46,541 nucleotides of DNA from a virus (taxonomy: Duplodnaviria > Caudoviricetes): the IMG/VR virus record IMGVR_UViG_3300023100_000002, positions 1-46,541 of that record; one strand, 5' to 3'. A model generated the notes under the pieces. It was not told where the DNA came from and made no database searches. It saw only the letters and a list, made by a program, of their open reading frames with translations. Below, piece after piece: positions 1-45,911 of this stretch. Both the position numbers and the translations under genes were made by a program. The number at the start of each line of letters is the position of its first letter. Position 1 is the stretch's first letter.

Positions 1-127
1 GGTGAAGGGCTATATGGATGGCATGGACTGGAACAGCTTTTATGAGCCAGCCTCGCTAGAGCATAAGCCGCCATCCTATAAGCATGGATTCCGTAATGGC
101 ATGGATGATCGAAAGGGACAGCCACGT
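1..127. repeat. Terminal direct repeat (127 bp), identical to 46415-46541; probable circular-assembly overlap
   Basis: Exact match of both ends; 127 is a common assembler k-mer; an ORF reads through the junction. Confidence 0.9.
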
Positions 128-174
128 GATACGGCTGATGTTCTTCGCCGCCGTGCTGAAATGATTATCGGGAG

Positions 175-372
175 TTGAAGGTGTCTAGCATTGAAGATGC
201 AGTAGTAGCCAAGATCAAAGATCGGGCTATCGATGGACTGATTAAGTATCAGCAGACGATGGAGCGGACAGACCTATCTACCTTGGACTGGCTGATCCAC
301 GCGCAAGAAGAGGCAATGGACTTGGCCGTATACCTTGAGAGATTGATCCAAGATGAGCGCGCCAAGGTTTAG
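175..372 (+). CDS. Small phage protein, possibly all-alpha NTP-pyrophosphatase (MazG-like) fold
   Basis: GLIKY...DWLIHAQEEAMDLAVY with EExxD-type acidic helix; start may be GTG 181. Confidence 0.5.
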   Translation: MKVSSIEDAVVAKIKDRAIDGLIKYQQTMERTDLSTLDWLIHAQEEAMDLAVYLERLIQDERAKV

Positions 373-553
373 CCAGTACACAGACGATGAACTAGAAATC
401 GTCATGCGTCTAAGTAGAGAGCTAGCCAAGTCAGTTTTCTATATACACCGAAAGGGTTATGACGTTAGCGAGGTCATGCAAGAGGCTAGAGACTTCGCGG
501 CTGAGGCTAGGATGATGGATAGAGAACTTCAACGACGAAAGAGGGGGAAGTGA
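353..553 (+). CDS. Hypothetical protein
   Basis: ORF tightly overlapping neighbours in + strand operon. Confidence 0.65.
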   Translation: MSAPRFSQYTDDELEIVMRLSRELAKSVFYIHRKGYDVSEVMQEARDFAAEARMMDRELQRRKRGK

Positions 554-771
554 TGAGTTGGGAGCCGATTGAGACAGCGCCTCTAGACGGTAGCGCAATT
601 CTGGCCTGCGTTGCTAGTCACTATGGAGATAATGGATTTCTGCCAGTATCCGTTCGCTGGCGGTGTTATCACCCTAACGCTAAGGGTAAAGAAGCGTTTC
701 GTGACCACACTGGTGCGAAATGCGATTACCTCACACACTGGATGCCGCTTCCGGCTCCGCCAACCAAGTAA
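550..771 (+). CDS. DUF551-like phage protein
   Basis: WEPIETAPLDG...THWMPLPAPP termini. Confidence 0.75.
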   Translation: MMSWEPIETAPLDGSAILACVASHYGDNGFLPVSVRWRCYHPNAKGKEAFRDHTGAKCDYLTHWMPLPAPPTK

Positions 772-773
772 GG

Positions 774-1289
774 ATGAATATGACCGATAGCAACTCTACC
801 GCCCTGCGCGGCGCTCTGGCTCGGGCGATCAAGAGCCACGTTGAGATGAAGGGATTGAACGGCGTACAGGCTGCGAAGGAATGCGGCATCGCCAATAGCC
901 GTATGAGTACGATCCTGCGCGGCCAGGTTGAGAAGATCAGCTCCGATGCGCTGGTGGATATTCTCGGCACGCTGGGCTACCGGCTGGATAGCGTGATTGG
1001 CGCGACTGAGGGGCATGAGTTCACGCTGACGCTGGATGAGGGCTTGGGTCTGCCTAAGGATATTGAGCCGCCCGTTTCTGCCTATAAAATTGAGGTAGGT
1101 CGCGATGATGCTGGCGCTATGGTTGTAGAAGGGCTCTCCGTAAATAACAATAATGCTCAGGGTGAGCCGTTTGGGGTGTTGGTCGGAACCGTAAAAGATG
1201 GAAAGGTGGTTTCCGAAAAGATTGTTATGTCAGATGAACTTGAAGAATCCGACCCCGACGCCGACCGAGTGGTGAGCGACGATGAGTGA
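774..1289 (+). CDS. XRE-family helix-turn-helix protein with acidic C-terminal extension
   Basis: GLNGVQAAKECGIANSRMSTILRGQVEKISSDALVDIL is an XRE HTH pattern; ATG 774 follows the upstream stop. Confidence 0.75.
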   Translation: MNMTDSNSTALRGALARAIKSHVEMKGLNGVQAAKECGIANSRMSTILRGQVEKISSDALVDILGTLGYRLDSVIGATEGHEFTLTLDEGLGLPKDIEPPVSAYKIEVGRDDAGAMVVEGLSVNNNNAQGEPFGVLVGTVKDGKVVSEKIVMSDELEESDPDADRVVSDDE

Positions 1290-1818
1290 CGTATACACTC
1301 TTACGCCGGGTGTCATGGGCGGGGCGGGGTTGCCATTTAAGATGGCCGCTGCTGATTTCAAGCTTGCCAATGAAATCAGCAGCTTAGGCCAGCCAGAGCT
1401 AATTAACATCAAGCGCCTCCACCCGTCCGCAGTAATTCCGACCTACGCCACCGATGGCTCAGGCTGCTTCGACATTACGGCACTTGAGATGGTGCAGCAG
1501 GAGGGTAATACGGCGTTCTACACCACTGGCCTAGCGTTTGAGGTTCCGCCAGGCAAGGTGCTGATGCTTTACAGCCGTAGCGGGCATGGGTTCAATCGGG
1601 GCATCCGGCTTGCTAATTGTGTGGGGGTGATCGATTCAGATTACCGTGGAGAAGTCGCCGTAAAGCTGACTCGGGACAATGAGGGCATTTGGTTCCCTGC
1701 GGCTGGTGAGCGGATTGCTCAGGGGCTTATTCAGGATGCCCAGCAGGTCAGGTTCGTTGAGGTCCAAGAGCTTAGTGAAACGGCGCGCGGAACTGGTGGC
1801 TTTGGATCGACTGGCTGA
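1282..1818 (+). CDS. dut: Trimeric dUTPase
   Basis: Motifs GCFD, RSG, GVIDSDYRGE, RIAQ, RGTGGFGSTG. Confidence 0.97.
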   Translation: MSDVYTLTPGVMGGAGLPFKMAAADFKLANEISSLGQPELINIKRLHPSAVIPTYATDGSGCFDITALEMVQQEGNTAFYTTGLAFEVPPGKVLMLYSRSGHGFNRGIRLANCVGVIDSDYRGEVAVKLTRDNEGIWFPAAGERIAQGLIQDAQQVRFVEVQELSETARGTGGFGSTG

Positions 1819-1884
1819 TCGTTCCACCACTGCACCACTGAATCCTACGCACGATGTTGCATAGGATTCTAGTAAGAGTAAGAT
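1817..1884 (+). promoter_or_regulatory. Putative promoter of the RNA island (repeated promoter module)
   Basis: GATCGTTCCA box at 1817, TTGCAT 1857-1862, 16-bp spacer, TAAGAT 1879-1884. Confidence 0.55.
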
Positions 1885-1893
1885 TCGATTCAA

Positions 1894-2097
1894 GGGATTT
1901 AGCTGAGCCGAGCAGCCCGCACAGGCGGATACCTCGGAAGTCGAGCAGCCGCAGGTCTTGGCTTGACGAAACAACGGCGGCACCTAGAGCGTCGTGTAGC
2001 CTTCGGGCGTCTCCGCAGCGTGATCTAGGCGAGTAACTAGCGTAACTAGGAGTAGAGGGGCTAAATTGGGGATGGTATAGCGCCCACTCGGCCTAGA
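1894..2097 (+). ncRNA. Putative structured ncRNA (multi-stem, UUCG tetraloop, possible pseudoknot)
   Basis: Several nested helices directly downstream of a promoter; no credible ORF. Confidence 0.5.
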
Positions 2098-2128
2098 CTT
2101 GGATTGTGAGATAAGTAGCATGTAGGAA

Positions 2129-2167
2129 CCCGCCAGTGGCTCTAGAGGGCTTAGGGCTGCTGGCGGG
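2129..2167 (+). other. 16-bp hairpin (with G-U pairs), possible processing signal
   Basis: CCCGCCAGTGGCTCTA / TAGGGCTGCTGGCGGG; no U-tract. Confidence 0.55.
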
Positions 2168-2184
2168 GGAAGTGAGTTATCGCA

Positions 2185-2260
2185 TGACCATGTAGTAGCT
2201 CAATAGGTAGAGCGACGTTTACGTCAGGTTTGAGGTTCAAGTCCTCACTCATGGTCAGCC
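2185..2260 (+). ncRNA. tRNA-like RNA with intact D and T arms but truncated anticodon arm
   Basis: TA-GCTC-AATAGGTA-GAGC D arm; TGAGG-TTCAAGT-CCTCA T arm; anticodon arm only GACGTTTACGTC; no CCA. Confidence 0.65.
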
Positions 2261-2275
2261 GATAGTTCATTTAAA

Positions 2276-2399
2276 GTGTTGCTTGTAGTGGAGAATGCCA
2301 AGTGGTGATTGGCAGGGAGGACCAGTCGGGTAAGCCGTAGCGCTGCGGGGTTAACGCGACAAGCCAGAGAATCACCACTGGCCTCCACTACAAACAGCA
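2276..2399 (+). ncRNA. Putative rod-shaped ncRNA with branched apex
   Basis: 2283-2293/2383-2393, 2297-2300/2379-2382 and 2302-2310/2370-2378 pair perfectly. Confidence 0.6.
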
Positions 2400-2420
2400 T
2401 TTCTAGTAAAATAGATTTAA

Positions 2421-2507
2421 GGGATCATGGCAGAGTGGCCGAATGCAGCCGGTTGCTAACCGGTAAGCCGCAATGGCTCAGAGGTTCAAATCCTCTTGAT
2501 CCCGCCA
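2421..2507 (+). tRNA. tRNA-Ser(GCT)
   Basis: GGGATCA/TGATCCC acceptor, GCCGG-TTGCTAA-CCGGT anticodon arm, long variable arm, G73, CCA. Confidence 0.93.
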
Positions 2508-2512
2508 GTTTT

Positions 2513-2599
2513 GGGTTGTTCCGCTGTGTTGGACGGCGAGCGGTCTTGAAAACCGTGGGAACCGAAAGGTTCGGGGTTCGACTCCTCAGCAACCCGCAA
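2513..2599 (+). tRNA. tRNA-Ser(TGA)
   Basis: GGGTTGT/GCAACCC acceptor, GCGGT-CTTGAAA-ACCGT, long variable arm, TTCGACT loop; ends G-CAA rather than CCA. Confidence 0.85.
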
Positions 2600-2629
2600 T
2601 TTATTCTATAGACGACTAAGGAGTCAGTC

Positions 2630-2998
2630 ATGGATAAAAAAGCATTAAAGCTTGGTATGAATTACAGCACTGCAGCAAATAGGCTGAGGTCTGATCTCCT
2701 CTATCATTTTGCAATAAAGTTTGGTCACAAATGCCATAGGTGTAGCAAGGATCTGACAAGGGAAACTTTTTCAGTCGAACATATTGACCCATGGCTGAAT
2801 TCAGATGATCCGGTTAAGAACTTCTTTGATATAAGTAATATAGCTTTTAGCCATCAATCTTGTAACTACAGCCATGGCGGAAAGGGTGCTGTTAGGAGAT
2901 TTTCAAAAGAGCAAATGGTTGAAAGGAAGAGGACAAAGAAAAGGGAATCGTACTGCCCTATAAAAAGGGCACAGAAATACGAGAGACTTGGCACTTAG
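2630..2998 (+). CDS. HNH endonuclease (putative free-standing homing endonuclease)
   Basis: CHRC...SVEHIDP...NIAFSHQSCN; visibly AT-richer than its flanks; lies inside the tRNA cluster. Confidence 0.85.
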   Translation: MDKKALKLGMNYSTAANRLRSDLLYHFAIKFGHKCHRCSKDLTRETFSVEHIDPWLNSDDPVKNFFDISNIAFSHQSCNYSHGGKGAVRRFSKEQMVERKRTKKRESYCPIKRAQKYERLGT

Positions 2999-3018
2999 CG
3001 ATCCTCAACAACCCGCCA
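2999..3018 (+). repeat. Second copy of the tRNA-Ser(TGA) 3' end, with CCA
   Basis: CGATCCTCAACAACCCGCCA vs CGACTCCTCAGCAACCCGCAA at 2579-2599. Confidence 0.8.
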
Positions 3019-3022
3019 TATT

Positions 3023-3098
3023 GGGACTGTAGCTTAAAGGTCAAAGCAACCGACTCATAATCGGTTGAGTCTAGGTTCAAGTCCTAGCGGTCCCACCA
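3023..3098 (+). tRNA. tRNA with CAT anticodon (Ile2-like, or elongator Met)
   Basis: GGGACTG/CGGTCCC, ACCGA-CTCATAA-TCGGT, CTAGG-TTCAAGT-CCTAG, ACCA; lacks initiator features. Confidence 0.92.
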
Positions 3099-3100
3099 TT

Positions 3101-3197
3101 TCATGGTAAGTGTCGCGGGCAGCAACCACACGCGGAGGTAGACCAGATGTAGCTGGTGAACTAAGTTCTAAGGCATATCGAAAAGCTGTCACCATGA
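3101..3197 (+). ncRNA. Putative structured ncRNA between two tRNAs
   Basis: Closed by TCATGGT/ACCATGA; three internal hairpins. Confidence 0.5.
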
Positions 3198-3203
3198 TTC
3201 ATT

Positions 3204-3277
3204 ACGAGCTTGCCCGATTGGTTAGGGACCAGCCTTCCAAGCTGAGGAAATCGGTTCGATTCCGATAGTTCGCTCCA
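3204..3277 (+). tRNA. tRNA-Gly(TCC), atypical A1xC72
   Basis: CAGC-CTTCCAA-GCTG, ATCGG-TTCGATT-CCGAT, U73, CCA. Confidence 0.85.
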
Positions 3278-3306
3278 GTTTCAACCACGGAAGAGAAGAG
3301 GGAAGT

Positions 3307-3633
3307 ATGGGTAAGTTGGCAGAAGCGCTTGGGAAGTTCTTAATCTCACTGTCGTTTGCAATTGTTCTTGGCATCTACAATGCGTGGCTGTTCAAAGATT
3401 TGTGGAATTGGTTTGTAGTTCCGACTTTTGATGTTGGGCAAATCGGAACGGCGATGGCCTATGGACTGCTTATGGCTTTCGCATGGCCACTTACTCACCT
3501 GCTGTTCTTCACGAATCAGGTTTACGATAAGCAGGAGGGTGCCGTAGGTGTGTACGGTCGAGGGTTTGTGCTTAGCTTCGCGCATACCTTCATTTGGGTT
3601 ATCGCATACGTTGTCGCTCACAACTTCATCTAA
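3307..3633 (+). CDS. Membrane protein (about 3 TM segments)
   Basis: Hydrophobic segments; GAGG RBS. Confidence 0.8.
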   Translation: MGKLAEALGKFLISLSFAIVLGIYNAWLFKDLWNWFVVPTFDVGQIGTAMAYGLLMAFAWPLTHLLFFTNQVYDKQEGAVGVYGRGFVLSFAHTFIWVIAYVVAHNFI

Positions 3634-3638
3634 GGCTA

Positions 3639-3666
3639 TTGCCAGCCGCGCATGAGTCGCTATAAT
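3639..3666 (+). promoter_or_regulatory. Sigma70-like promoter
   Basis: TTGCCA-16bp-TATAAT. Confidence 0.7.
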
Positions 3667-3672
3667 GAACTC

Positions 3673-3782
3673 GCACGGCTGCTCAAGCGCCTGCCCACGG
3701 TCCCTCCCCGTGGTTAAGTCCGGCCTCATCCACCGGCACGCGCCCTAGGCTATCGTCCTCCCCGATAGTGCTAGGGTTTTTT
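3673..3782 (+). ncRNA. Putative small regulatory RNA with three CCUC(C)-loop hairpins
   Basis: Bounded by promoter and intrinsic terminator; loops TCCCTCC, CCTCATCCA, TCCTCCC. Confidence 0.65.
3743..3782 (+). terminator. Intrinsic terminator
   Basis: CCCTAGGCTATCG/CGATAGT-G-CTAGGG stem followed by T6. Confidence 0.85.
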
Positions 3783-3793
3783 ATGGGCGAAAT

Positions 3794-3862
3794 CCATCGT
3801 TCTATTCATGGCGAAGATAGTTCTATCCATGATGTTGATCGGATCGTGTAAGTTGGTACTCT
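3794..3862 (+). promoter_or_regulatory. Repeated promoter module copy
   Basis: CATCGTTCTA, GATAGTTCTA, GATGTTGATC, TACTCT 3857-3862. Confidence 0.55.
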
Positions 3863-3993
3863 TTAGTAACTGGGGCGACAGCAGCGACCGGGACACAACT
3901 AAGGCGGCAACAGAATGTCTTAGCCGAGAACTCCGACTAGCGGTCCCATCTACTTTCAGACACACAACGGCCACGGGCCAATAGGGAGATGAG

Positions 3994-4194
3994 ATGATGA
4001 TGTTTAGCGCAAGCGTATTGGCGTATTTTAGCCCTCAGCATTTCCGTGGGATGCGTGTTGGTCAGGCGTATCACAATTTCCTAAGCCTTGATAAGGTAAA
4101 GGGCGTTGAAAAGGAATGGTGCGATAAGTTTTATGAGGCGGATGGTGAAATTGCTTATGCCATGCTTCGTGAGCGAACGGATTTCACGCAATGA
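3994..4194 (+). CDS. Hypothetical protein
   Basis: GGAG RBS; MRVGQA motif seen in small phage proteins. Confidence 0.7.
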   Translation: MMMFSASVLAYFSPQHFRGMRVGQAYHNFLSLDKVKGVEKEWCDKFYEADGEIAYAMLRERTDFTQ

Positions 4195-4337
4195 CTGACC
4201 AAGAGCGCGCAATGCAGCGGGCGAAGAATCCAGGCAAGTCATCTTGGCGAGCATGGCACGGAACGTCGGAGCAGGTTAAGCGGGATAAGGAGAAGGCGGA
4301 GCGAGTCGCGCCGCTACATTCGAGGGTTATCCGATGA
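4191..4337 (+). CDS. Hypothetical 48-aa protein (not in ORF track)
   Basis: ATGA overlaps at both ends. Confidence 0.6.
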   Translation: MTDQERAMQRAKNPGKSSWRAWHGTSEQVKRDKEKAERVAPLHSRVIR

Positions 4338-4528
4338 AGAAAGAAGTATTTGAGAAGATGCTAGAAGAATATCTGTCTAGCTGCACTCTTACGGTCGAGC
4401 ATGATAATGGCGAGGGCTATTACGGCACGGCTCAAATCGTAGTCGGCCTAGAGTCTCCTGATGGGAAGCATCTTTTGGGTGGCGTTGGCTACACCAGCAC
4501 CTTTGAAAAAGCTAAGAATGAGTGGTAA
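4334..4528 (+). CDS. Hypothetical protein
   Basis: GAGG RBS, ATGA coupling. Confidence 0.7.
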   Translation: MKKEVFEKMLEEYLSSCTLTVEHDNGEGYYGTAQIVVGLESPDGKHLLGGVGYTSTFEKAKNEW

Positions 4529-4532
4529 CTAG

Positions 4533-4661
4533 ATGAAAGCATGGTTCGCAGAATGGATATCCAAGCCGCGCCATTGGGTGTTCTGGCTGCTGGCGGCTAA
4601 CTTCACGGCATGGCTTGTGCTTGGAGTCGGCGCTATTGGGTTGTGGGCTGTATTTAAATAA
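4533..4661 (+). CDS. Small membrane protein (42 aa, not in track)
   Basis: MKAWFAEW...LVLGVGAIGLWAVFK fills the gap. Confidence 0.55.
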   Translation: MKAWFAEWISKPRHWVFWLLAANFTAWLVLGVGAIGLWAVFK

Positions 4662-4672
4662 GGAGAGGCGGG

Positions 4673-4912
4673 ATGAAGGTGAGAGAACTGATTGAGTGGC
4701 TGCAAGCATTTGAGGACCAGGAAGCTACTGTTAGGGTTCTGCATTGTGAATCAGGCAGCGGCTACTATCAGCAAGGCGGCGTGACACATGCCGTAGAGTT
4801 CAGTCCAGAAGATCATGTGGATTACTCTGATTTCAGAGGTAATAAGTTCGTTGAAGAGTCTTCTCATTGGTATAACTCACGCACACTTTTGCTGGGTTTG
4901 AATGAAGGCTAA
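4673..4912 (+). CDS. Hypothetical protein
   Basis: AGGAGAGG RBS; MKVRELIEWLQ start. Confidence 0.75.
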   Translation: MKVRELIEWLQAFEDQEATVRVLHCESGSGYYQQGGVTHAVEFSPEDHVDYSDFRGNKFVEESSHWYNSRTLLLGLNEG

Positions 4913-4913
4913 T

Positions 4914-4942
4914 TTGCATCAGGCAAGGCGCAGGGGTATCCT
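4914..4942 (+). promoter_or_regulatory. Putative promoter for the lysis cassette
   Basis: TTGCAT-17bp-TATCCT. Confidence 0.45.
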
Positions 4943-4968
4943 TTCGGAAACCTGCGCCTTGTGTATAT

Positions 4969-5655
4969 ATGATCACTGCTGAATCCATCGTCCGAATCGC
5001 CCCAGCCGCTCAGCCGTATGCCCAAGAACTCGTCCGGCAGATGAAAGCTGCTGGGATCATGAATAACGTTCGGCGAGCATCTATGTTTTTGGGGCAGGTT
5101 CATGTGGAGTCTGCGGGCTTCAAGGCTGTTCAAGAAAACTTGAACTACTCTGCGGATGGAATGGCTAATACATGGCCGGGCCGGTACGGCGAGAAGGATT
5201 CGGCTGGTAAGTATGTAAAGGTCAATCTCGGCACCGCCTCAAATCCGCGCTGGCGAATTAAGCCTAATGCCTTGGCAAATAAGCTTCAGCGCAACCCACG
5301 AGCCATCGCTAACAATGTCTACGCCAACCGCATGGGTAATGGGAATGAGGCATCTGGCGATGGCTGGAAGCATCGCGGCCAAGGTCTGAAGATGCTTACC
5401 GGCAAGGAAAATCAAGGCAAGTTCAGCAAGGCATGGAAAGGCGATGATTCTGTCGTGAAGAATCCTGACCTGCTGGCCACTCCGGCTGGGGCTGTGGCCT
5501 CGGCAATTTGGTATTGGGTTGCCAATGGACTGAATGAAATCGCTGACCGTGGCTCTGTAGACAGAGTTACGGAGTTGGTAAATGGGGGGCAAATCGGTCT
5601 AGCGGATCGGAAGTCATGGACTCAGAAGTACGCGGCAGCTTGGACTATCCGATAA
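4969..5655 (+). CDS. Endolysin, glycoside hydrolase family 19
   Basis: FLGQVHVES, ENLNYS, YANRMGNG...GDGWKHRGQG, VNGG...GLADR. Confidence 0.93.
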   Translation: MITAESIVRIAPAAQPYAQELVRQMKAAGIMNNVRRASMFLGQVHVESAGFKAVQENLNYSADGMANTWPGRYGEKDSAGKYVKVNLGTASNPRWRIKPNALANKLQRNPRAIANNVYANRMGNGNEASGDGWKHRGQGLKMLTGKENQGKFSKAWKGDDSVVKNPDLLATPAGAVASAIWYWVANGLNEIADRGSVDRVTELVNGGQIGLADRKSWTQKYAAAWTIR

Positions 5656-5680
5656 TGGGGCAAACCATGGAGGGGCTATC

Positions 5681-6082
5681 TTGAATGCAACGACCTACAT
5701 AGCCGCCTTCCTGGCCGCTGCAACCGGCTCTGAGATTGCTCGGCAGATTCAGCAGGCATCTCCATGGTGGCACCTGACGTTGGGAACATCGTTCAACACC
5801 CTTTTTTTCATTGGGCTAGGTTGCTTCATGGTGGTTCTGAAGAATAAGAAGAAAGATCACGCCGACCTTCTATACCTTTTCCTATACTCCTTTGGTCTAA
5901 CCTCTTTGGTTATTGTTGGGATTCCGGAATACTTTGGATACAAGTGGCCTAGCAATGGACTTCAAGCGTGCGCGGGATGGGTGCTTGGCATGACCTCTCA
6001 GAATTGGGGTGGATACTTGCTTGAATGGGGCAAAGAAAAGTTCCAGAAGGCACTAGGAAAAGGAAGCGCTACCGATGAGTAA
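5681..6082 (+). CDS. Membrane protein, holin candidate
   Basis: About 3 TM segments and basic C-tail, right after the endolysin. Confidence 0.6.
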   Translation: MNATTYIAAFLAAATGSEIARQIQQASPWWHLTLGTSFNTLFFIGLGCFMVVLKNKKKDHADLLYLFLYSFGLTSLVIVGIPEYFGYKWPSNGLQACAGWVLGMTSQNWGGYLLEWGKEKFQKALGKGSATDE

Positions 6083-6707
6083 TATTTGGTCTTATGCGAC
6101 TATCCCGGCCCTCTCTGTTATTTGGCTGACCGCATTCTTTGGGCTTAATGCCGTACGCCCGCCTAATTGGCGCGCACTGCTGACGTGGCCTGGCGCGGTA
6201 GACTTCGGTCTTGGGATTGGATTCCTATCCATGACGGCCAGCAGCTTCATGATGCTCCTAGCCTGCATCATGGGTGCCAACATCTATACATGGCGCGGCG
6301 CTCTGCTGATGTGGAGCATTGCAACGGTGTTCGCGCTGGCTGGGAAGTTCTATCCATGGCGGCGCATCTTCCGGCGCACTACGGATATGGATCGGCTAGA
6401 GAAGAAGTGGCGTGGTGAGGCTGTGCCCACGATGGATGAGCTATCTGAACTGATTGCAGAAAGCCGTAGGGCGCTTTCAACGCGAGGCTCAACGCGGGCC
6501 GATGAGTGCATGAGGGTTCTGCCCACAGTAGTTGCAGCGCTGGAAAAGATGGCCCTCCGGCAGCATCAGATTTATACTATTCGCGTGGAACTGAAGACGG
6601 CCTTGCAGGAACTCAAGCGGGCGTCAAACGAAGATGACCTAGAGCCGCTGGTGACTCGGGTTAACCTGCTACTGGATCGGCTGGAAGGAATCATCCACCA
6701 TGAATAA
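6075..6707 (+). CDS. Membrane protein with cytoplasmic helical C-domain (lysis-associated?)
   Basis: About 3 TM segments then a charged helical region; within the lysis cassette. Confidence 0.6.
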   Translation: MSNIWSYATIPALSVIWLTAFFGLNAVRPPNWRALLTWPGAVDFGLGIGFLSMTASSFMMLLACIMGANIYTWRGALLMWSIATVFALAGKFYPWRRIFRRTTDMDRLEKKWRGEAVPTMDELSELIAESRRALSTRGSTRADECMRVLPTVVAALEKMALRQHQIYTIRVELKTALQELKRASNEDDLEPLVTRVNLLLDRLEGIIHHE

Positions 6708-6975
6708 CGATTTGGAACGGACACTTGATCGTCTTGATAAGGTCCTTCCGCACCTGAGTTCCAATAACACCGTTGGAACTTCTACTATCAATGTCAACGC
6801 AGGCGGGATCGGCGTATGGCTAGCTGTTACATGTACCGCAGTGGCTACCACTCTTTGCATGGTTATGGTTCTGATGTACGTAGACACGAACCGAAAGTAT
6901 GACCGAATGCAGGATTTGCTGAGTGTCATCTATCAGCAGGCACCTTGGCTTAAAGAACCCCCCAAAGAAGAGTGA
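6700..6975 (+). CDS. Single-TM protein (holin/antiholin candidate)
   Basis: GIGVWLAVTCTAVATTLCMVMVLMY TM segment. Confidence 0.6.
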   Translation: MNNDLERTLDRLDKVLPHLSSNNTVGTSTINVNAGGIGVWLAVTCTAVATTLCMVMVLMYVDTNRKYDRMQDLLSVIYQQAPWLKEPPKEE

Positions 6976-6981
6976 TTGCAA

Positions 6982-7140
6982 ATGTCGACCATTATCATTG
7001 TGACCCCGCCTAAGAAAGAAAACCGAATCGCAGGCGTCCAGCACTTCACCGCCGAGCATATCGAAGGCGCGCGAGTGTCGGATATTCTGCGCGAAGTAGC
7101 GAATCAGATGGATCAGGCTGAAGAGGCCGACGAAGGCTAA
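6982..7140 (+). CDS. Hypothetical 52-aa protein (not in track)
   Basis: Fills the gap; TAATG overlap with the i-spanin. Confidence 0.55.
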   Translation: MSTIIIVTPPKKENRIAGVQHFTAEHIEGARVSDILREVANQMDQAEEADEG

Positions 7141-7688
7141 TGAACGCCATCATCCTAGCGCTAGGCGGTGTACGGGCAAGCATCTTTGCGGGTGTGGCAC
7201 TCCTTATCCTCCTAGCCGCTGGCGTGCAGACGTGGCGTCTTGGGAATGCTCAGGATGCCTACGCTGCGTATCAGGATAAGGTAGTGGCCGCTACGGCCAA
7301 GGCGTATCAGGCGGCTGCTACGGCCCGAGAGAAGGCCCAAGAGGCGGTCATCGAGTACCAATCCAAGTCGGCTGAGGCCGAGCGAAACTACCAAGCCGGA
7401 CGGGAGTCGGCAATCCATGCGCAAACTACTCTTGTCAGCGATCTTCGCAACGGTAATCAGCGGTTGCAGCAGCAGTGGCGGGGCTGTGAGTCAAATCGAG
7501 TACGTGAAGGTCAAACCATTGCCGGAACTGCCAGCGGACCGGATGCAGAAGCCGACCTACGGGCAGAAGGTGCGGGCTATCTTATTGGAAGCGCCGACCA
7601 AGCCGACTCCGTAATCACGTGGCTCCAATCCGAACTGACCGCAACCCGCGAACTCTACGGCAAGTGCATGGTTCCTAAGGAAAAGTAA
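7140..7688 (+). CDS. Rz-like inner-membrane spanin
   Basis: N-terminal TM, coiled coil, ADQADSVITWLQ end; embedded lipoprotein gene. Confidence 0.88.
   Translation: MNAIILALGGVRASIFAGVALLILLAAGVQTWRLGNAQDAYAAYQDKVVAATAKAYQAAATAREKAQEAVIEYQSKSAEAERNYQAGRESAIHAQTTLVSDLRNGNQRLQQQWRGCESNRVREGQTIAGTASGPDAEADLRAEGAGYLIGSADQADSVITWLQSELTATRELYGKCMVPKEK
7417..7614 (+). CDS. Rz1-like outer-membrane lipoprotein spanin (embedded, +1 frame)
   Basis: Signal MRKLLLSAIFATVISG-C lipobox; Pro-rich; GGAG RBS. Confidence 0.88.
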   Translation: MRKLLLSAIFATVISGCSSSGGAVSQIEYVKVKPLPELPADRMQKPTYGQKVRAILLEAPTKPTP

Positions 7689-7888
7689 TGTTTGGTCTTC
7701 CTGACTGCGAAGAGATTCGGACATTCAAGCCTGAATGTGTGTGCCATCAATGCTTGCCAGATTGGTACAAGATGACGCATATGGTCCTTTGCCCTGAATG
7801 CGGCAACAAACGCTGCCCTCGCGCCAACGATCACCGCAACGAATGTACCAACAGCAATGCCACGGGCCAGCCGGGAAGTGCCTACTGA
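7688..7888 (+). CDS. Cys-rich putative zinc-binding protein
   Basis: CVCHQC...CPECGNKRCPRANDH. Confidence 0.75.
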   Translation: MFGLPDCEEIRTFKPECVCHQCLPDWYKMTHMVLCPECGNKRCPRANDHRNECTNSNATGQPGSAY

Positions 7889-8073
7889 TGCGCCACGTAG
7901 TAATGGACGTACTGTCCCCGTGGGTAGAGATTGAGTGCCCCCGCTGCGGCATCGACTACGATCTAGAGCCGGAAGACGCTTACGTAGGGATGAGCTGCTA
8001 TTGCGGCTACCGCTACACAAAGGCTGACTTGGCCGACCGAGCCACCCTATACGCCCCGGATTGCGACGAATAG
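7888..8073 (+). CDS. Zinc-ribbon protein
   Basis: CPRC...CYCG; TGATG coupling at 7888. Confidence 0.65.
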   Translation: MRHVVMDVLSPWVEIECPRCGIDYDLEPEDAYVGMSCYCGYRYTKADLADRATLYAPDCDE

Positions 8074-8166
8074 CGCAACTCAACGTTCTATCTGTGTAGG
8101 CCTACGGCAGGCACGGGTTTGCTAGGATTGACCTATCGCGGCGATGGCCGGTTTAGGAGAGATGCT

Positions 8167-8337
8167 ATGGATCACAGCAATTGTTACCTCAGTAGCGGAA
8201 TCTGCGGTTCAATCACTGCGGGTCAGGGGAAGCTTGATGAGAATGGGTATTTTGAAATCCCATGCATTGAGTGTGCCAATCGGGCTGAAGAATATTGGTA
8301 CTCTGAGCCAGAGCAGGCCAAAGAAAATAACAACTGA
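8167..8337 (+). CDS. Hypothetical protein
   Basis: AGGAG RBS before ATG 8167. Confidence 0.6.
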   Translation: MDHSNCYLSSGICGSITAGQGKLDENGYFEIPCIECANRAEEYWYSEPEQAKENNN

Positions 8338-8349
8338 GAGGGATAAGGG

Positions 8350-8532
8350 ATGAGGATCGGAGATTTGAGTGAAGATGTATATGGCACGCTTGCAGCTCGC
8401 GGCCATTCTGATGAGGAAATCAAGAGCATGACTGTCGGCGAGGCTTTCAGCGAATATTGCTGCTGGAATGGAATGCATGGTTGGGGCGCTACGCTTATGA
8501 GGGTTATTCGAGAGTTGGAGTATGCGCAATGA
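8350..8532 (+). CDS. Hypothetical protein
   Basis: RBS and operon continuity. Confidence 0.65.
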   Translation: MRIGDLSEDVYGTLAARGHSDEEIKSMTVGEAFSEYCCWNGMHGWGATLMRVIRELEYAQ

Positions 8533-8843
8533 ACCTCGAACAGATCGACACCAGCACTACGGCGGGGAAGGCCCGTGTGATGCAGCTTGCGGCTGAGGGG
8601 CGGAAGGTGGCTGCTGGCCCGGCTGGGTCCGTGCCGTTCGCCGAAATTAGGAATGACCCATCGTGGGATTGGAAGTCCAATACATACGCCATCATCGCCG
8701 AGCCGGTTGGGCCGGATGAGGTGTGGGGCCTCATCCACAACGACGGTTCTGTACTTGTCCTATCTTCAAACCGCCTTGAAGCGGCGGAGCGTCAATCGCT
8801 CATCCGCTACATCCGCGCCGACCTCGCTGGGGAGGTGGGCTGA
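8529..8843 (+). CDS. Hypothetical protein
   Basis: ATGA coupling at 8529 (MNLEQIDT...). Confidence 0.65.
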   Translation: MNLEQIDTSTTAGKARVMQLAAEGRKVAAGPAGSVPFAEIRNDPSWDWKSNTYAIIAEPVGPDEVWGLIHNDGSVLVLSSNRLEAAERQSLIRYIRADLAGEVG

Positions 8844-9106
8844 TGGAGATGATTCTTGGCCTCGTCGGCATCGCAGCCTTCCCGCTGATCTTCTTCGTGG
8901 TGACGATACCCACGTTCCGGGCACTGTTGTGGACCGTGGACCGTGTGCTGGATGGCCGCGACCCATTCGACAACTTCAGGGATTGGCAGGCCTGGGTTGC
9001 GTACGTGCTGTACTTCACCGGTGCGGCGTGGAGTCTCGGGCTGGGCATTGCGGCATGTGCGGCTTACGGCTTCTGGTTGACGTCCCCGCCGGAGGCGCAG
9101 CCATGA
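8843..9106 (+). CDS. Membrane protein (2 TM)
   Basis: GGAGG RBS; hydrophobic segments. Confidence 0.7.
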   Translation: MEMILGLVGIAAFPLIFFVVTIPTFRALLWTVDRVLDGRDPFDNFRDWQAWVAYVLYFTGAAWSLGLGIAACAAYGFWLTSPPEAQP

Positions 9107-9548: not shown

Positions 9549-9751
9549 CTAAGGGTGACAGAGTCAAGCTGAGGGCTGAGCTGGCTGGGAAGGCGATGGC
9601 GGCATTGATTTGTAATGCACAAGCAATGGGTCGAATCGACTTTGCAATAGGTATTGATAAGTCTAGGAGGCGCGATCAGATAGTTGCAAAAGAAGCAACA
9701 GCATTCGCAGACGCCCTAATGGCTGAGCTTGGCATTAAGGGGGAGGAGTGA
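9545..9751 (+). CDS. Hypothetical protein
   Basis: AGKAMAALI...FADALMAEL motif common in small phage proteins. Confidence 0.7.
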   Translation: MTKGDRVKLRAELAGKAMAALICNAQAMGRIDFAIGIDKSRRRDQIVAKEATAFADALMAELGIKGEE

Positions 9752-9984
9752 TGAGCCATTGTGAGTGGAGGCCTATCGAGGAGGCGCCGCGAGACGGCAC
9801 TGATATTCTTATCTCTGGCGGGACGTACAGCTACGGCATGTGGGAAGATGAGAAGTACAGCGGAGTGACTATCGCCCGTTGGTATCACGATCATTGGCGC
9901 GGTGAAGACCGACAAGCTCATGACGACTGGTATTCGCACAAGCCGACCCATTGGGTGTCACTGCCGCCGCCACCGGAGGCATGA
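9748..9984 (+). CDS. DUF551-like phage protein
   Basis: WRPIEEAPRDG...PTHWVSLPPPP. Confidence 0.75.
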   Translation: MMSHCEWRPIEEAPRDGTDILISGGTYSYGMWEDEKYSGVTIARWYHDHWRGEDRQAHDDWYSHKPTHWVSLPPPPEA

Positions 9985-9985
9985 G

Positions 9986-10240
9986 ATGAAACTTAGGGAT
10001 GATTGGTCTGCAAGGCTCTGGCGAAACAAGATATTGTTCATCCGAATGTTACTTGCGGCTTCGGTGATGCTTCCTTTCTGGCTGATTGAGAAGGTCATTG
10101 AAGTGCAAAATGATTTCTCAGATTGGTTGTATTGGAAATGGCGTAATGCTGGATGGCTAGAGTGGATGACTGGAACTCTTACTACATGGGTTGGCAAGAT
10201 TGAAGAAAACAAGCCAAAGGGGAGGAAGGTAGATGAGTAA
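9986..10240 (+). CDS. Hypothetical protein with TM segment
   Basis: GGAGG RBS upstream of ATG 9986. Confidence 0.6.
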   Translation: MKLRDDWSARLWRNKILFIRMLLAASVMLPFWLIEKVIEVQNDFSDWLYWKWRNAGWLEWMTGTLTTWVGKIEENKPKGRKVDE

Positions 10241-10406
10241 GGTAGACTACAAAGCGGCATTTGATGAATTCATTGAAAAGACAGAATGGGTCCAGAAGAC
10301 AGTTCAGCCTCATGAGCTTGGCTATCACCGGGCTGACATTCTGCGAATGAGGATCGATGCGCTAGAGGCGGAAGTATCTCATTTGTACCGATGCTTGGCA
10401 GAATGA
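10233..10406 (+). CDS. Hypothetical 57-aa protein (not in track)
   Basis: GGAGG RBS; MSKVDYKAAFDEFIEKTEWVQ. Confidence 0.6.
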   Translation: MSKVDYKAAFDEFIEKTEWVQKTVQPHELGYHRADILRMRIDALEAEVSHLYRCLAE

Positions 10407-10848: not shown

Positions 10849-11226
10849 ATGGCAGCCGTAGGAAGACCTAGGACAAAACTAGAAGACCTCCCGTCCGACT
10901 GGAAGGATCGGATGCTTGCTGCTGCCTCAGAGGGTAAGTCGGCTGTCGAGGTCAGGCATGAAATTGGAATCGGGCGCTCAGCATGGGAAACATTGCTAGA
11001 AGATAGTGATGAGTTTCGAGCAGCCGAAAAAGACGCAAGGGAACTGTGCGAGGTATGGTGGGAGCGATCCGGGCGCACCCTGGCTATGGCTGGGGGCGGG
11101 AATAGCGCCATCTGGATTTTCAATATGAAGAACCGGTTCGGCTGGCGGGATAAGAAGGAAGAAGAAGAGAAGAAGGACGACATGTCCGATGTTATCCGCG
11201 ACCTGATTGCCAAGCTCCCCGGATGA
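10849..11226 (+). CDS. terS: Terminase small subunit
   Basis: GRP N-terminus, HTH-like core, IWIFNMKNRFGWRDK; upstream of TerL. Confidence 0.88.
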   Translation: MAAVGRPRTKLEDLPSDWKDRMLAAASEGKSAVEVRHEIGIGRSAWETLLEDSDEFRAAEKDARELCEVWWERSGRTLAMAGGGNSAIWIFNMKNRFGWRDKKEEEEKKDDMSDVIRDLIAKLPG

Positions 11227-12539
11227 AAACGGGCAATATCCTGCTAGACCGCCAGCTAGCCCGTTGGTACGCGCTCAGGGACCATCCAGTACAGCTAGCC
11301 CTTATGTCGGCTGTGCCTAACGGTATGCGCTTCCCCTTGGTGCCTGCGGGGCGCCGTAGCGGCAAGACTGAGCGGTTTAAGCGATTCCTAGTAAAGCAGG
11401 CTAGCGCTGACTCAGGACCATACTTTGCTGCCGCTCCTACGCATGCACAAGCGAAGAAGATATTCTGGGATGACCTGAAGGCTTTCACTCTTTCGGCTAC
11501 CCATAAGCGTAGGCCATCTGAGTCTGAGCTAATCATCTACATGGACTGCGGGTCTGAAATCCATGTGATCGGATTGGATAAGCCTCAGCGTATCGAGGGT
11601 ATCCCTTGGCGAGGCGGTGGCATTGATGAGTTCGCCGATATCAAGTCAGACGCATGGGAGGCCAATATCCTCCCTGCACTCAATACCGTTAACCCGACTG
11701 ATCCGGACTACCGTGCGTGGTGCTGGCTCCTTGGTGTGCCTGACGGCTTGAACCACTACTACGACCTCTGTGTTAAGGCTGAGAGTGGGGCTGATCCTAA
11801 CTTTGGCGTATTCCATTGGAAGTCAGCAGAGATTCTGCCGCCTGACGTGATGGATGCCATGCGCCGCGCCATGTCGGCCAAGCAGTTCAAGCAGGAGTTT
11901 GAGGCCAGCTTTGAGACGGCTGGCGGGCGTATATATGAGGACTACGGCAAGCACAACACTACGCATGAGACGATCCAGCCTCATGAGCAGCTAATGTGGA
12001 TGCACGATCAGAACTTCACCCCCCTGTCTTCTGCCATTGGGGTTAGGCGTAACAAGGATGACCTGTACCTACTGGATGAGATTGTGCTCACTAGCGCAGT
12101 ATCCAGGCAGTCGGCGGTTGAGTTCGTGGAAAAGTATAAGAATCATCAGAATAAACACGTCCTGATCTATGGTGATCCGGCAGGTAAGGCGGGCGAGAAG
12201 CACGGCCATGCGTCCGATTACACGGATATTGAGGGAGTGCTAAAAGAGCATGGCTGGCGATATACCCGAAAGGTTAAACCTGCCCATCCAGCGATTAAGG
12301 ACCGTCAGAATGCGGTGAGGACTAAGATTCTTACTGCCGCTGGCGAAACATCGCTATACGTCAATCCTGTAACTGCTGAGTGGTGTCATAAGGGCTTAGC
12401 TACGGTCCAGCTAAAGGAAGGCTCTACTTTCCAAGAGGACCAAACGAATCAATACCAGCACATAACCACAGCTATCGGTTATTGTATTGATGTAGAATGG
12501 CCGAGTAAGCCTAAATTCAATATCACAGCTATGGCCTGA
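11223..12539 (+). CDS. terL: Terminase large subunit
   Basis: Walker A AGRRSGKT, Walker B GGIDE, FKQEFEASF, nuclease domain YGDPAG. Confidence 0.95.
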   Translation: MKTGNILLDRQLARWYALRDHPVQLALMSAVPNGMRFPLVPAGRRSGKTERFKRFLVKQASADSGPYFAAAPTHAQAKKIFWDDLKAFTLSATHKRRPSESELIIYMDCGSEIHVIGLDKPQRIEGIPWRGGGIDEFADIKSDAWEANILPALNTVNPTDPDYRAWCWLLGVPDGLNHYYDLCVKAESGADPNFGVFHWKSAEILPPDVMDAMRRAMSAKQFKQEFEASFETAGGRIYEDYGKHNTTHETIQPHEQLMWMHDQNFTPLSSAIGVRRNKDDLYLLDEIVLTSAVSRQSAVEFVEKYKNHQNKHVLIYGDPAGKAGEKHGHASDYTDIEGVLKEHGWRYTRKVKPAHPAIKDRQNAVRTKILTAAGETSLYVNPVTAEWCHKGLATVQLKEGSTFQEDQTNQYQHITTAIGYCIDVEWPSKPKFNITAMA

Positions 12540-43698: not shown

Positions 43699-43765
43699 TC
43701 GTTCCATCCATGAGCATGATCGTTCTACTGGTGATGTTTATCCGATGATGTAACAGGCGTAGGAT
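43697..43765 (+). promoter_or_regulatory. Repeated promoter module copy
   Basis: GATCGTTCCA, GATCGTTCTA, GATGTTTATC-17bp-TAGGAT. Confidence 0.6.
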
Positions 43766-45443: not shown

Positions 45444-45747
45444 CTGGCGGCCAATTGAGACTGCACCAAAAGATGGCACTGTAATTGACTTGTGGCTTAA
45501 TTGTTCACGAGATGGAGGGCACAGGGTTGCTGATGCGTATTGGAATCCAAACGGTGAGCACAGCACTTGGAAGGATGGTCGGTGGCGTGATGTAAGAGAG
45601 CCTTGCTGGTATGCGCCTAACTTTGACTATGATGGAGCCGATGGTTGCTGCGAGAAGAGGCGTGTATATGTAGATCATTACATGAAAAATAAATGGGTGT
45701 GGGATGAGCCTACACATTGGATGCCAACGCCTGAGCCGCCTAAATGA
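45436..45747 (+). CDS. DUF551-like phage protein
   Basis: WRPIETAPKDG...PTHWMPTPEPP. Confidence 0.75.
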   Translation: MSDWRPIETAPKDGTVIDLWLNCSRDGGHRVADAYWNPNGEHSTWKDGRWRDVREPCWYAPNFDYDGADGCCEKRRVYVDHYMKNKWVWDEPTHWMPTPEPPK

Positions 45748-45911
45748 CCCGCCAAGAGCAAGCCTACCAAGCGGGCCAATGGGCTAGGCAAGAGGGCAGG
45801 ACTGAGGCGGCAATGCCGCTCTACGGCCCGACTGAGGAATGCATGGTTCTTCGCAAGAAATGGCGCGAAGGCTGGCGGGCTGAGGATGCACAACGGAGTA
45901 AGAAGAAATGA
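45744..45911 (+). CDS. Rmf-like small protein (55 aa, not in track)
   Basis: EQAYQAG...EGR...PLY...RKKWREGWR; ATGA coupling at both ends. Confidence 0.6.
   Translation: MTRQEQAYQAGQWARQEGRTEAAMPLYGPTEECMVLRKKWREGWRAEDAQRSKKK

Follow-up and report, generated by a model that had tools for sequence, protein, structure and literature searches.

A Conserved and Apparently Undescribed Family of Predicted Small RNAs with C/U-Rich Loops in CUB19-like Phages

The Phage Genome and the RNA Locus

The window, which is the whole stretch of 46,541 nt analysed here, is a complete virus record representing a CUB19/Kintu/Silvergun-like phage genome, and it encodes siphovirus head, tail, replication and lysis genes. 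The closest cultured relatives are Silvergun, CUB19, S72/SBP2phi2, Kintu, and SOVA965. Published descriptions of CUB19 and SBP2phi2 (PMC9612306, PMC11881566) present Stenotrophomonas phages that have no lysogeny or integrase genes, and Silvergun is reported as an A. baumannii phage (10.1101/2024.06.15.599013). The terminase of the window (11223-12539) and that of Silvergun share 100% identity; Stenotrophomonas or Xanthomonas are the hosts of the remaining cultured relatives.

Behind a tRNA cluster, the window contains a promoter followed by a predicted small RNA with a weak 5' hairpin and three hairpins with C/U-rich loops, the last of which is an intrinsic terminator (Table 1). An earlier note on this DNA had described the promoter, three hairpins and their loops, the terminator and the T6 tract, and each base of them was confirmed; the weak 5' hairpin adds to that description. 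It had also proposed that every loop is complementary to GGAG/GAGG ribosome-binding sites (RBSs). This holds for the two loops of Shine-Dalgarno (SD) type, while the middle loop CCUCAUCCA pairs with the start-codon context UGG-AUG-AGG and not with a plain SD. Including its closing C, the loop of hairpin 3 has GGGGAGGA as its complement.

Table 1. Coordinates of the predicted RNA element, its upstream context and predicted target sites in the window.
Feature	Position	Strand	Remarks
tRNA cluster (Ser-GCT, Ser-TGA, Met-CAT, Gly-TCC)	2421-3277	+	upstream of the RNA; conserved context
Promoter, sigma-70-type, TTGCCA/16 nt/TATAAT	3639-3666	+	score 11/12, top score in 1-9000
-35 box, TTGCCA	3639-3644	+	
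-10 box, TATAAT	3661-3666	+	
Predicted small RNA, about 110 nt	3673-3782	+	putative start by distance from the -10 box, putative end by the U-tract
Weak 5' hairpin	3673-3694	+	predicted fold; similar one in the MFE fold of most homologues
Hairpin 1, CCACGG-[TCCCTCC]-CCGTGG	3695-3713	+	loop UCCCUCC, complement GGAGGGA
Hairpin 2	3718-3739	+	loop C-CUCAUCC-A; heptamer invariant, complement GG-AUG-AG
Hairpin 2 core, CCGG-[CCTCATCCA]-CCGG	3720-3736	+	
Hairpin 3 = intrinsic terminator, then T6	3742-3782	+	loop UCCUCCC, complement GGGAGGA
Terminator stem	3742/3743-3776/3777	+	
Terminator loop, TCCTCCC	3756-3762	+	
T6 tract	3777-3782	+	
Predicted target GGGGAGGA, RBS of ORF 10233-10406	10219-10226	+	
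Predicted target GGGGAGGA, RBS of ORF 9751-9984	9740-9747	+	
Predicted anti-AUG-loop target GG-ATG-AGG, start of ORF 8350-8532	8348-8355	+	duplex -15.1 kcal/mol, loop only

Four other sigma-70-like sites in positions 1-9000 score 9/12, against 11/12 for the RNA promoter. The four-hairpin fold of 3673-3783 has an energy of -43.1 kcal/mol (z -3.34), equalled by 0/200 shuffles. The terminator is absent from the output of a simple terminator scanner because of a bulge in its stem. The 5' half of the element is covered by a minus-strand ORF of 127 aa (3346-3729), and a plus-strand frame of 21 codons begins within the promoter spacer, with an ATG that is missing from most homologues. A protein-coding reading was rejected, as the ATG of the CDS predicted in Silvergun lies in the promoter spacer and is likewise missing from most homologues.

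Several other elements were observed around the locus. The interval 3799-3865 of the window, downstream of the terminator, holds twin GTTCTATCCATG-like direct repeats followed by a second promoter-like site, TTGATC-16-TACTCT (3838-3865), and is conserved in all 10 loci aligned. A further copy of the repeat, with 1 mismatch, is located at 43701; the twin repeats may serve as the operator of a phage regulator, for instance the HTH protein encoded at 780-1289. An insert of about 80 nt behind this promoter (window 3872-3955; L002 2596-2680) was found only in the window and Kintu among the 10 loci, and the same hairpin is predicted in both (z +0.64 and -2.26). At another locus, an HNH-type ORF of about 470 nt (L007 1610-2075; domain recognized by eye) is inserted directly 3' of the RNA terminator. 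In the tRNA region, the ORF-free stretches 3100-3203 and about 1880-2170 are conserved in Silvergun; they show no convincing Rfam match and are possible further non-coding RNAs. ARAGORN missed a degenerate element at window 2189-2254 (33 bits) that resembles a tRNA but has a shortened anticodon arm.

Homologues and Conservation of the RNA

A pattern scan yielded 10 viral, 67 metagenome and 45 genome loci. A profile search over 213 sources returned 47 matches at E<1e-8, separated by a clear gap from noise. It confirmed 10/10 viral, 22/67 metagenome and 1/45 genome pattern loci, plus previously found loci; the remaining 45/67 metagenome and 44/45 genome loci are chance matches. After removal of one truncated copy, the homologue set comprises 33 distinct sequences, 106-122 nt long as extracted, which come from genomes of the CUB19-like phage group and from metagenome contigs. 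The sole real match in a genome contig (L199) is a 377-nt contig with a coverage of about 1 within a Streptomyces assembly, and is probably stray phage DNA. A single RNA copy was found in each of 10 complete records searched.

Three C/U-rich loops of at least 7 nt are present in 33/33 homologues. The heptamer CUCAUCC is found in a loop and symmetrically centred in its hairpin in all 33, so that the loops, which under the earlier note's reading had to be conserved, are indeed conserved. A CUCUCC loop is present in 30/33 homologues and missing from the window, L088 and L165. The CUCAUCC loop is located in hairpin 3 in 31/33 homologues; in the window (3718-3777) and Silvergun (L001 2584-2640), hairpins 2 and 3 have exchanged their loops, the anti-AUG one and the second anti-SD one, compared with the other 31. 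A TTG..TA..T promoter lies upstream of 31/31 homologues with enough flanking sequence, in 11 sequence variants with spacers of 16-18 nt, and a tRNA is found at most 900 nt upstream in 28/31.

The stems vary in sequence and remain paired. Covariation was analysed for the 31 co-linear sequences; the window and Silvergun were left out because of their swapped loop order. Both sides change in 8/16 named pairs, 99% of cells are paired, and 0/500 shuffles match these values, where the structure was derived from the same alignment and kinship inflates the shuffle test. Slid-alignment controls pair only 25-51% of cells. In the window, the arms of stem 1 (CACGG/CCGTG against the usual CGGTG/CACCG) and of the terminator differ in sequence from those of the family, yet they pair.

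The transcribed strand bears on one alternative, in which the opposite strand would act as a CsrA/RsmA sponge, since its loops read GGAGGGA, UGGAUGAGG, and GGGAGGA. The earlier note had disfavoured this reading on account of promoter and terminator, and the homologues agree: promoter and U-tail are on the plus strand in all complete ones, and no minus-strand promoter is seen near 3790-3900. The minus strand of 3673-3783 folds less well against shuffles (z -2.09), with an unstable centroid in which the hairpins are lost. Among 1174 predicted pairs across the homologues, 89 are G-U pairs, and conserved G-U pairs become A-C mismatches on the minus strand, which also speaks against a sponge. The raw MFE is not discriminating, as it favours the plus strand in only 20/33 homologues. 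A sponge on the antisense strand is thus very improbable.

Across the 61 S. humi family genomes searched, the phage RNA model gave weak matches only (best 30.8 bits), and these represent a host 3'-end element, not the phage RNA. A spanin search of the genome contigs found no relatives. The host element was observed on Xanthomonadaceae chromosomes at the 3' end of a gene that we take to be phasin-like (L257, L258, L259, L260, and L263, each at about 1500-1640). It consists of two hairpins with GUCCCUCCCC and AUCCCUCCCU-type loops, the first of which is the same as loop 1 of the window, and it shows sub-threshold ar14 matches. It is a candidate for a host 3'-UTR-derived C-rich small RNA.

Constant loops on exchangeable stems, behind an exchangeable promoter, indicate a functional RNA with the loops as its working part, and judged from these sequence patterns the RNA gene is very probably real. 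In the records of the cultured members (CUB19, SBP2phi2, S72, Kintu, SOVA965, and Silvergun), the RNA is unannotated or lies under a short predicted CDS. The main text of the CUB19 and SBP2phi2 papers mentions no small or non-coding RNA. No description of the RNA was found in the largely open-access literature searched, and 6 supplementary files of the catalogue of Fremin et al. (PMC10690425) gave 0 matches. The predicted RNAs thus appear to constitute a conserved and apparently undescribed phage small RNA family.

Complementarity of the Loops to the Phage Gene Starts

Gene starts were collected from 12 complete family genomes with a codon-based caller without an RBS term, which recovered 71/79 stops and 56/79 exact starts of the CUB19 annotation. 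The block from terminase to tail was classified as structural and all else as non-structural; "non-structural" stands as a proxy for "early", the timing of the gene classes being inferred from function. One genome (G066) has a duplicated end, so that a few starts are counted twice. Sites were defined as perfect complements of at least 6 nt to the SD-type loops of the same genome at positions -22 to -3.

Such sites precede 170/755 non-structural starts and 9/328 structural starts. A generic anti-SD motif served as a comparison, and its matches of at least 5 nt do not differ between the classes (241/755 non-structural, 121/328 structural). Matches of at least 7 nt to the anti-AUG loop are found at 60/755 non-structural and 6/328 structural starts, and GGAG is followed by AG in 90/263 non-structural versus 2/83 structural cases. 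The skew persists when counted per gene family (70/260 versus 3/90), among length-matched genes of 80-300 aa (72/357 versus 6/215), and with or without stop-start overlap. Its direction is the same in 12/12 genomes, with p<0.05 in 9. The window alone shows 11/59 versus 0/23, and the deposited starts of CUB19, counted by eye, show 13/51 versus 0/28.

After de-duplication, GGAGAG ranks at the top of 643 tested hexamers (50/494 non-structural versus 2/193 structural), and loop complements account for 6 of the top 25 hexamers versus 26 of the 643 overall. The start contexts G-ATG-A (90/494 versus 9/193) and GG-ATG-A (26/494 versus 2/193) are skewed in the same direction. With own-loop sites at 0/10 endolysin and 0/12 spanin genes, these two kinds of lysis gene behave like structural genes; one gene of the lysis cassette in the window (5681) has a loop-complementary site. 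Among long non-structural genes, 11/15 have a site. Besides its anti-AUG-loop target, ORF 8350-8532 of the window has an upstream GAGGGA that fits loop 1.

The RBS of window ORF 10233 is kept in all 12 genomes, reading GGAGAGGA in ten, GGATAGGA in one, and GGGGAGGA only in the window. GGAGAGGA matches the CUCUCC-type loop of those other complete genomes. Only the window among the 12 has an RNA without a CUCUCC loop; it has UCCUCCCC instead, and its RBS GGGGAGGA fits. The RNA of the L088 phage is also without CUCUCC, and the corresponding change predicted for its RBS was not found, as L008, which does not overlap with L088 and is probably the other half of the same phage, keeps GGAGAGGA. Compensatory change of loop and RBS thus has one case for it (the window) and one against it (L088/L008). 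Within its non-structural regions, the window retains 7 GGAGAG sites that precede an ATG.

The invariant hairpin could also be read as a decoy, mimicking the anticodon loop of tRNA-Met and soaking up a host anticodon nuclease or another tRNA-binding protein, with the other loops binding protein or G-rich RNA. CUCAU occupies positions 1-5 of the centred heptamer, CUCAUCC being centred in all homologues as CUCAUAA is in the tRNA-Met of the window; the gene sits behind a tRNA cluster in 28/31 cases, and the loop survives the change of position between hairpins 2 and 3. tRNAs carry a purine at position 37, whereas the phage loop has CC at the positions equivalent to 37/38 and an open loop of 9-11 nt. 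The CC extends pairing to the GG before AUG, and non-structural starts are enriched in G-ATG-A and GG-ATG-A. CUCA is also compatible with the YUNR U-turn found in antisense recognition loops. A decoy is rather unlikely in our estimation.

Controls

The controls without the RNA show no match to the phage RNA model. In four annotated control phages, 9/177 non-structural starts match. In 40 terminase-related control loci, the CUB19 loops match 41/497 starts upstream and 21/331 downstream of the terminase. With the same caller, GGAGAG is found upstream of the terminase at 10/497 starts in these 40 loci versus 8/50 in three family loci. The loops of the window are also skewed on the control loci (55/497 upstream versus 9/331 downstream), and its own 11/59 is not clearly above the control 55/497 (p=0.09). 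For the loop variant of the window, the skew is partly generic, and the window is a divergent member that fits the GGAGAG/CUCUCC signal less sharply.

Duplex energies show a similar generic component. With their own loops, the gap between gene classes is 1.25-1.56 kcal/mol when pooled and is not significant in Silvergun; foreign loops give 1.25 (cuckoo motif), 1.0 (sX13 loops), and 0.56 kcal/mol (anti-SD). The cuckoo and sX13 loops also separate the gene classes because the non-structural RBSs are more G-rich. Given this generic energy skew and the control result for the window, the family-specific signal consists of the GGAGAG/CUCUCC pair and the AUG context. The 6-mer sites are present in only about a fifth of non-structural genes, the seeds are short, and the genomes are kin.

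GGAGAG could also have spread independently of any RNA, by way of recombination linkers shared at gene boundaries. In another alternative, the RNA has a positive or structural role, as a translation chaperone or enhancer, or as a terminator insulating the tRNA operon, and the RBS bias has a separate origin, for example shared modular linkers. Identical RBS linkers recur ahead of unrelated genes, non-structural RBSs are generally more purine-rich, and the second promoter comes after the terminator. A terminator, however, needs neither its own promoter, present in 31/31, nor three conserved loops on covarying stems. Pairing over SD and AUG is expected to block initiation and not to help it, as is established for loop-type small RNAs (PMC3771888, PMC4615179). 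A positive or structural role is considered improbable.

The host may be the target instead. In this alternative, the RNA is a mimic of sX13 or of toxic anti-SD RNAs that represses G-rich host mRNAs, for example those for the pilus and hfq, reshaping the cell or blocking superinfection. Its size and three-loop plan are the same as those of the host sX13. The reverse test with the phage RNA model scores sX13 weakly (19 bits, E 0.025), against 60-126 bits for family members, and CCUCCCC, which the window loops form with their closing C, is also the core of loop 2 in sX13 of S. humi. sX13 uses 4G motifs to repress the mRNAs for hfq and the type IV pilus (PMC3771888). A CCCC run, though, is present in a loop in only 11/33 homologues. 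In samples of two Xanthomonadaceae genomes, where starts are less reliable, 6/257 start regions match, compared with 170/755 of the phages' own non-structural starts; still, 2% of about 4000 host genes amounts to as many sites, in absolute numbers, as the phage offers. A host-directed role leaves unexplained why structural genes are poor in sites alongside others enriched beyond controls, and it is regarded as unlikely. The earlier note had proposed a repressor of host or phage mRNAs; the comparative counts of loop complements point to non-structural mRNAs of the phage itself, and not to those of the host, as the principal set of pairing sites.

Proposed Function

The loops match the RBSs of many non-structural but almost no virion genes, so that the RNA likely turns these many non-structural genes down in the course of infection. 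We give roughly even chances to its being a trans-acting translational repressor, mainly of the phage's own early and middle mRNAs, that spares virion and most lysis genes. The host sigma-70 polymerase would transcribe the RNA from the start of infection, and the stable, structured RNA would accumulate. Two loops of the CUCUCC/CCCUCC type would cover GGAGAG/GGAGGG-type SDs, and the invariant CUCAUCC loop would cover G(G)-AUG-A(G). Initiation would then fall on the paired non-structural mRNAs, as expected from the complementarity and from sX13. Virion and most lysis mRNAs would escape because their SDs, equally strong, are without the extension, in agreement with the observed distribution. The outcome would be an early-to-late hand-over at the level of translation. 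In a co-infecting relative, these genes would be dampened as well, and so would a small minority of host mRNAs.

Early-to-late switching in tailed phages is usually attributed to proteins. That a lytic phage times its own programme by RNA, with early and middle mRNAs carrying the GGAGAG address silenced and the virion and lysis SD variants escaping, is a tentative proposal that we hold at somewhat below even chances. If it is true, the two RBS dialects of the genome are the imprint of an RNA switch, and a small RNA that sorts its own mRNAs by RBS dialect represents a different way to time infection. The few characterised base-pairing small RNAs of phages considered here come from temperate phages. 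Several cultured members are studied for phage therapy, and the hypothesis is directly testable there. One anti-start-codon loop together with two anti-SD loops would also make a compact natural design for programmable translational repression.

A 55-aa ORF in the window (45744-45911) shows a weak match to ribosome modulation factor (PF04957, E 4e-4, below the cut-off), and its family has 8 members among 12 genomes. It is a possible second translation-control function.

Comparison with Known RNAs

At the gathering threshold, Rfam recognizes only tRNAs over the window, and at E<=10 no match covers the RNA element. The sX13 model (RF02232) matches nothing in the phage genome at E<=10, while it recovers sX13 at 108-118 bits in 2/2 Xanthomonadaceae genomes. 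The ar14 model (RF02344), representing the cuckoo RNAs, also has 0 matches at E<=10. The likeness to sX13 and cuckoo RNAs proposed earlier therefore stands as analogy between C/U-rich-loop non-coding RNAs, and not as membership in either family.

Like the phage RNA, sX13 (RF02232; PMC3771888) has about 115 nt, a short 5' leader and three stems with apical C-rich loops, the last stem being the terminator, and pairing of its loops with G-rich sites close to start codons has been proposed. Repression by sX13 requires C-rich loops in the RNA as well as G-rich motifs in the mRNA (PMC3771888). This repression is independent of Hfq. The host family of sX13 is that of most cultured phage relatives. 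The sX13 gene is chromosomal, downstream of polA, while the phage RNA gene lies behind the phage tRNA cluster, and the stems of the two RNAs are unrelated. Loops of sX13 have 4C/5C, whereas the phage RNA has CUCUCC/CCCUCC and the invariant CUCAUCC, the latter without CCCC in the window. Unlike those of sX13, the predicted targets of the phage RNA are the phage's own genes.

The cuckoo RNAs (RSs0680/CcsR, ar14; PMC4615179) share with the phage RNA 2-4 adjacent hairpins, variable compensating stems and conserved anti-SD-like loops. Their loop motif CCUCCUCCC, as defined there (PMC4615179), occurs in 0/33 phage homologues. They repeat one motif and are located on alphaproteobacterial chromosomes, unlike the phage RNA with its three different loops. 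Cuckoo RNAs are linked to DUF1127, and neither DUF1127 nor a known RNA-binding domain was found among the 49 window ORFs scanned.

Betaproteobacterial toxic small RNAs have pyrimidine-rich loops complementary to RBS-like sequence. Their model (RF02278) has no match in positions 2000-4000 at E<=10, and these RNAs (PMC4603805) are bacterial and of another size and architecture. Likewise, the C-rich loops of the S. aureus RNAIII type, as outlined in PMC3771888, are pyrimidine-rich and RBS-complementary like those of the phage RNA, but belong to bacterial RNAs of different size and architecture.

PreS of lambda and VpdS of a Vibrio phage (10.1101/2024.10.31.621285) are trans-acting, base-pairing small RNAs made by phages in support of the lytic cycle. 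The mRNAs regulated by VpdS are those of host and phage alike, PreS is Hfq-dependent with host targets, and both come from temperate phages. The phage RNA described here differs from them in that its phages are described as lytic, and in that it is fully structured, has three loop seeds and matches a class-wide signature of its own RBSs. Judged by its loops and their complements, the phage RNA would work like C-rich-loop small RNAs, yet it is a member of neither the sX13 nor the cuckoo family.
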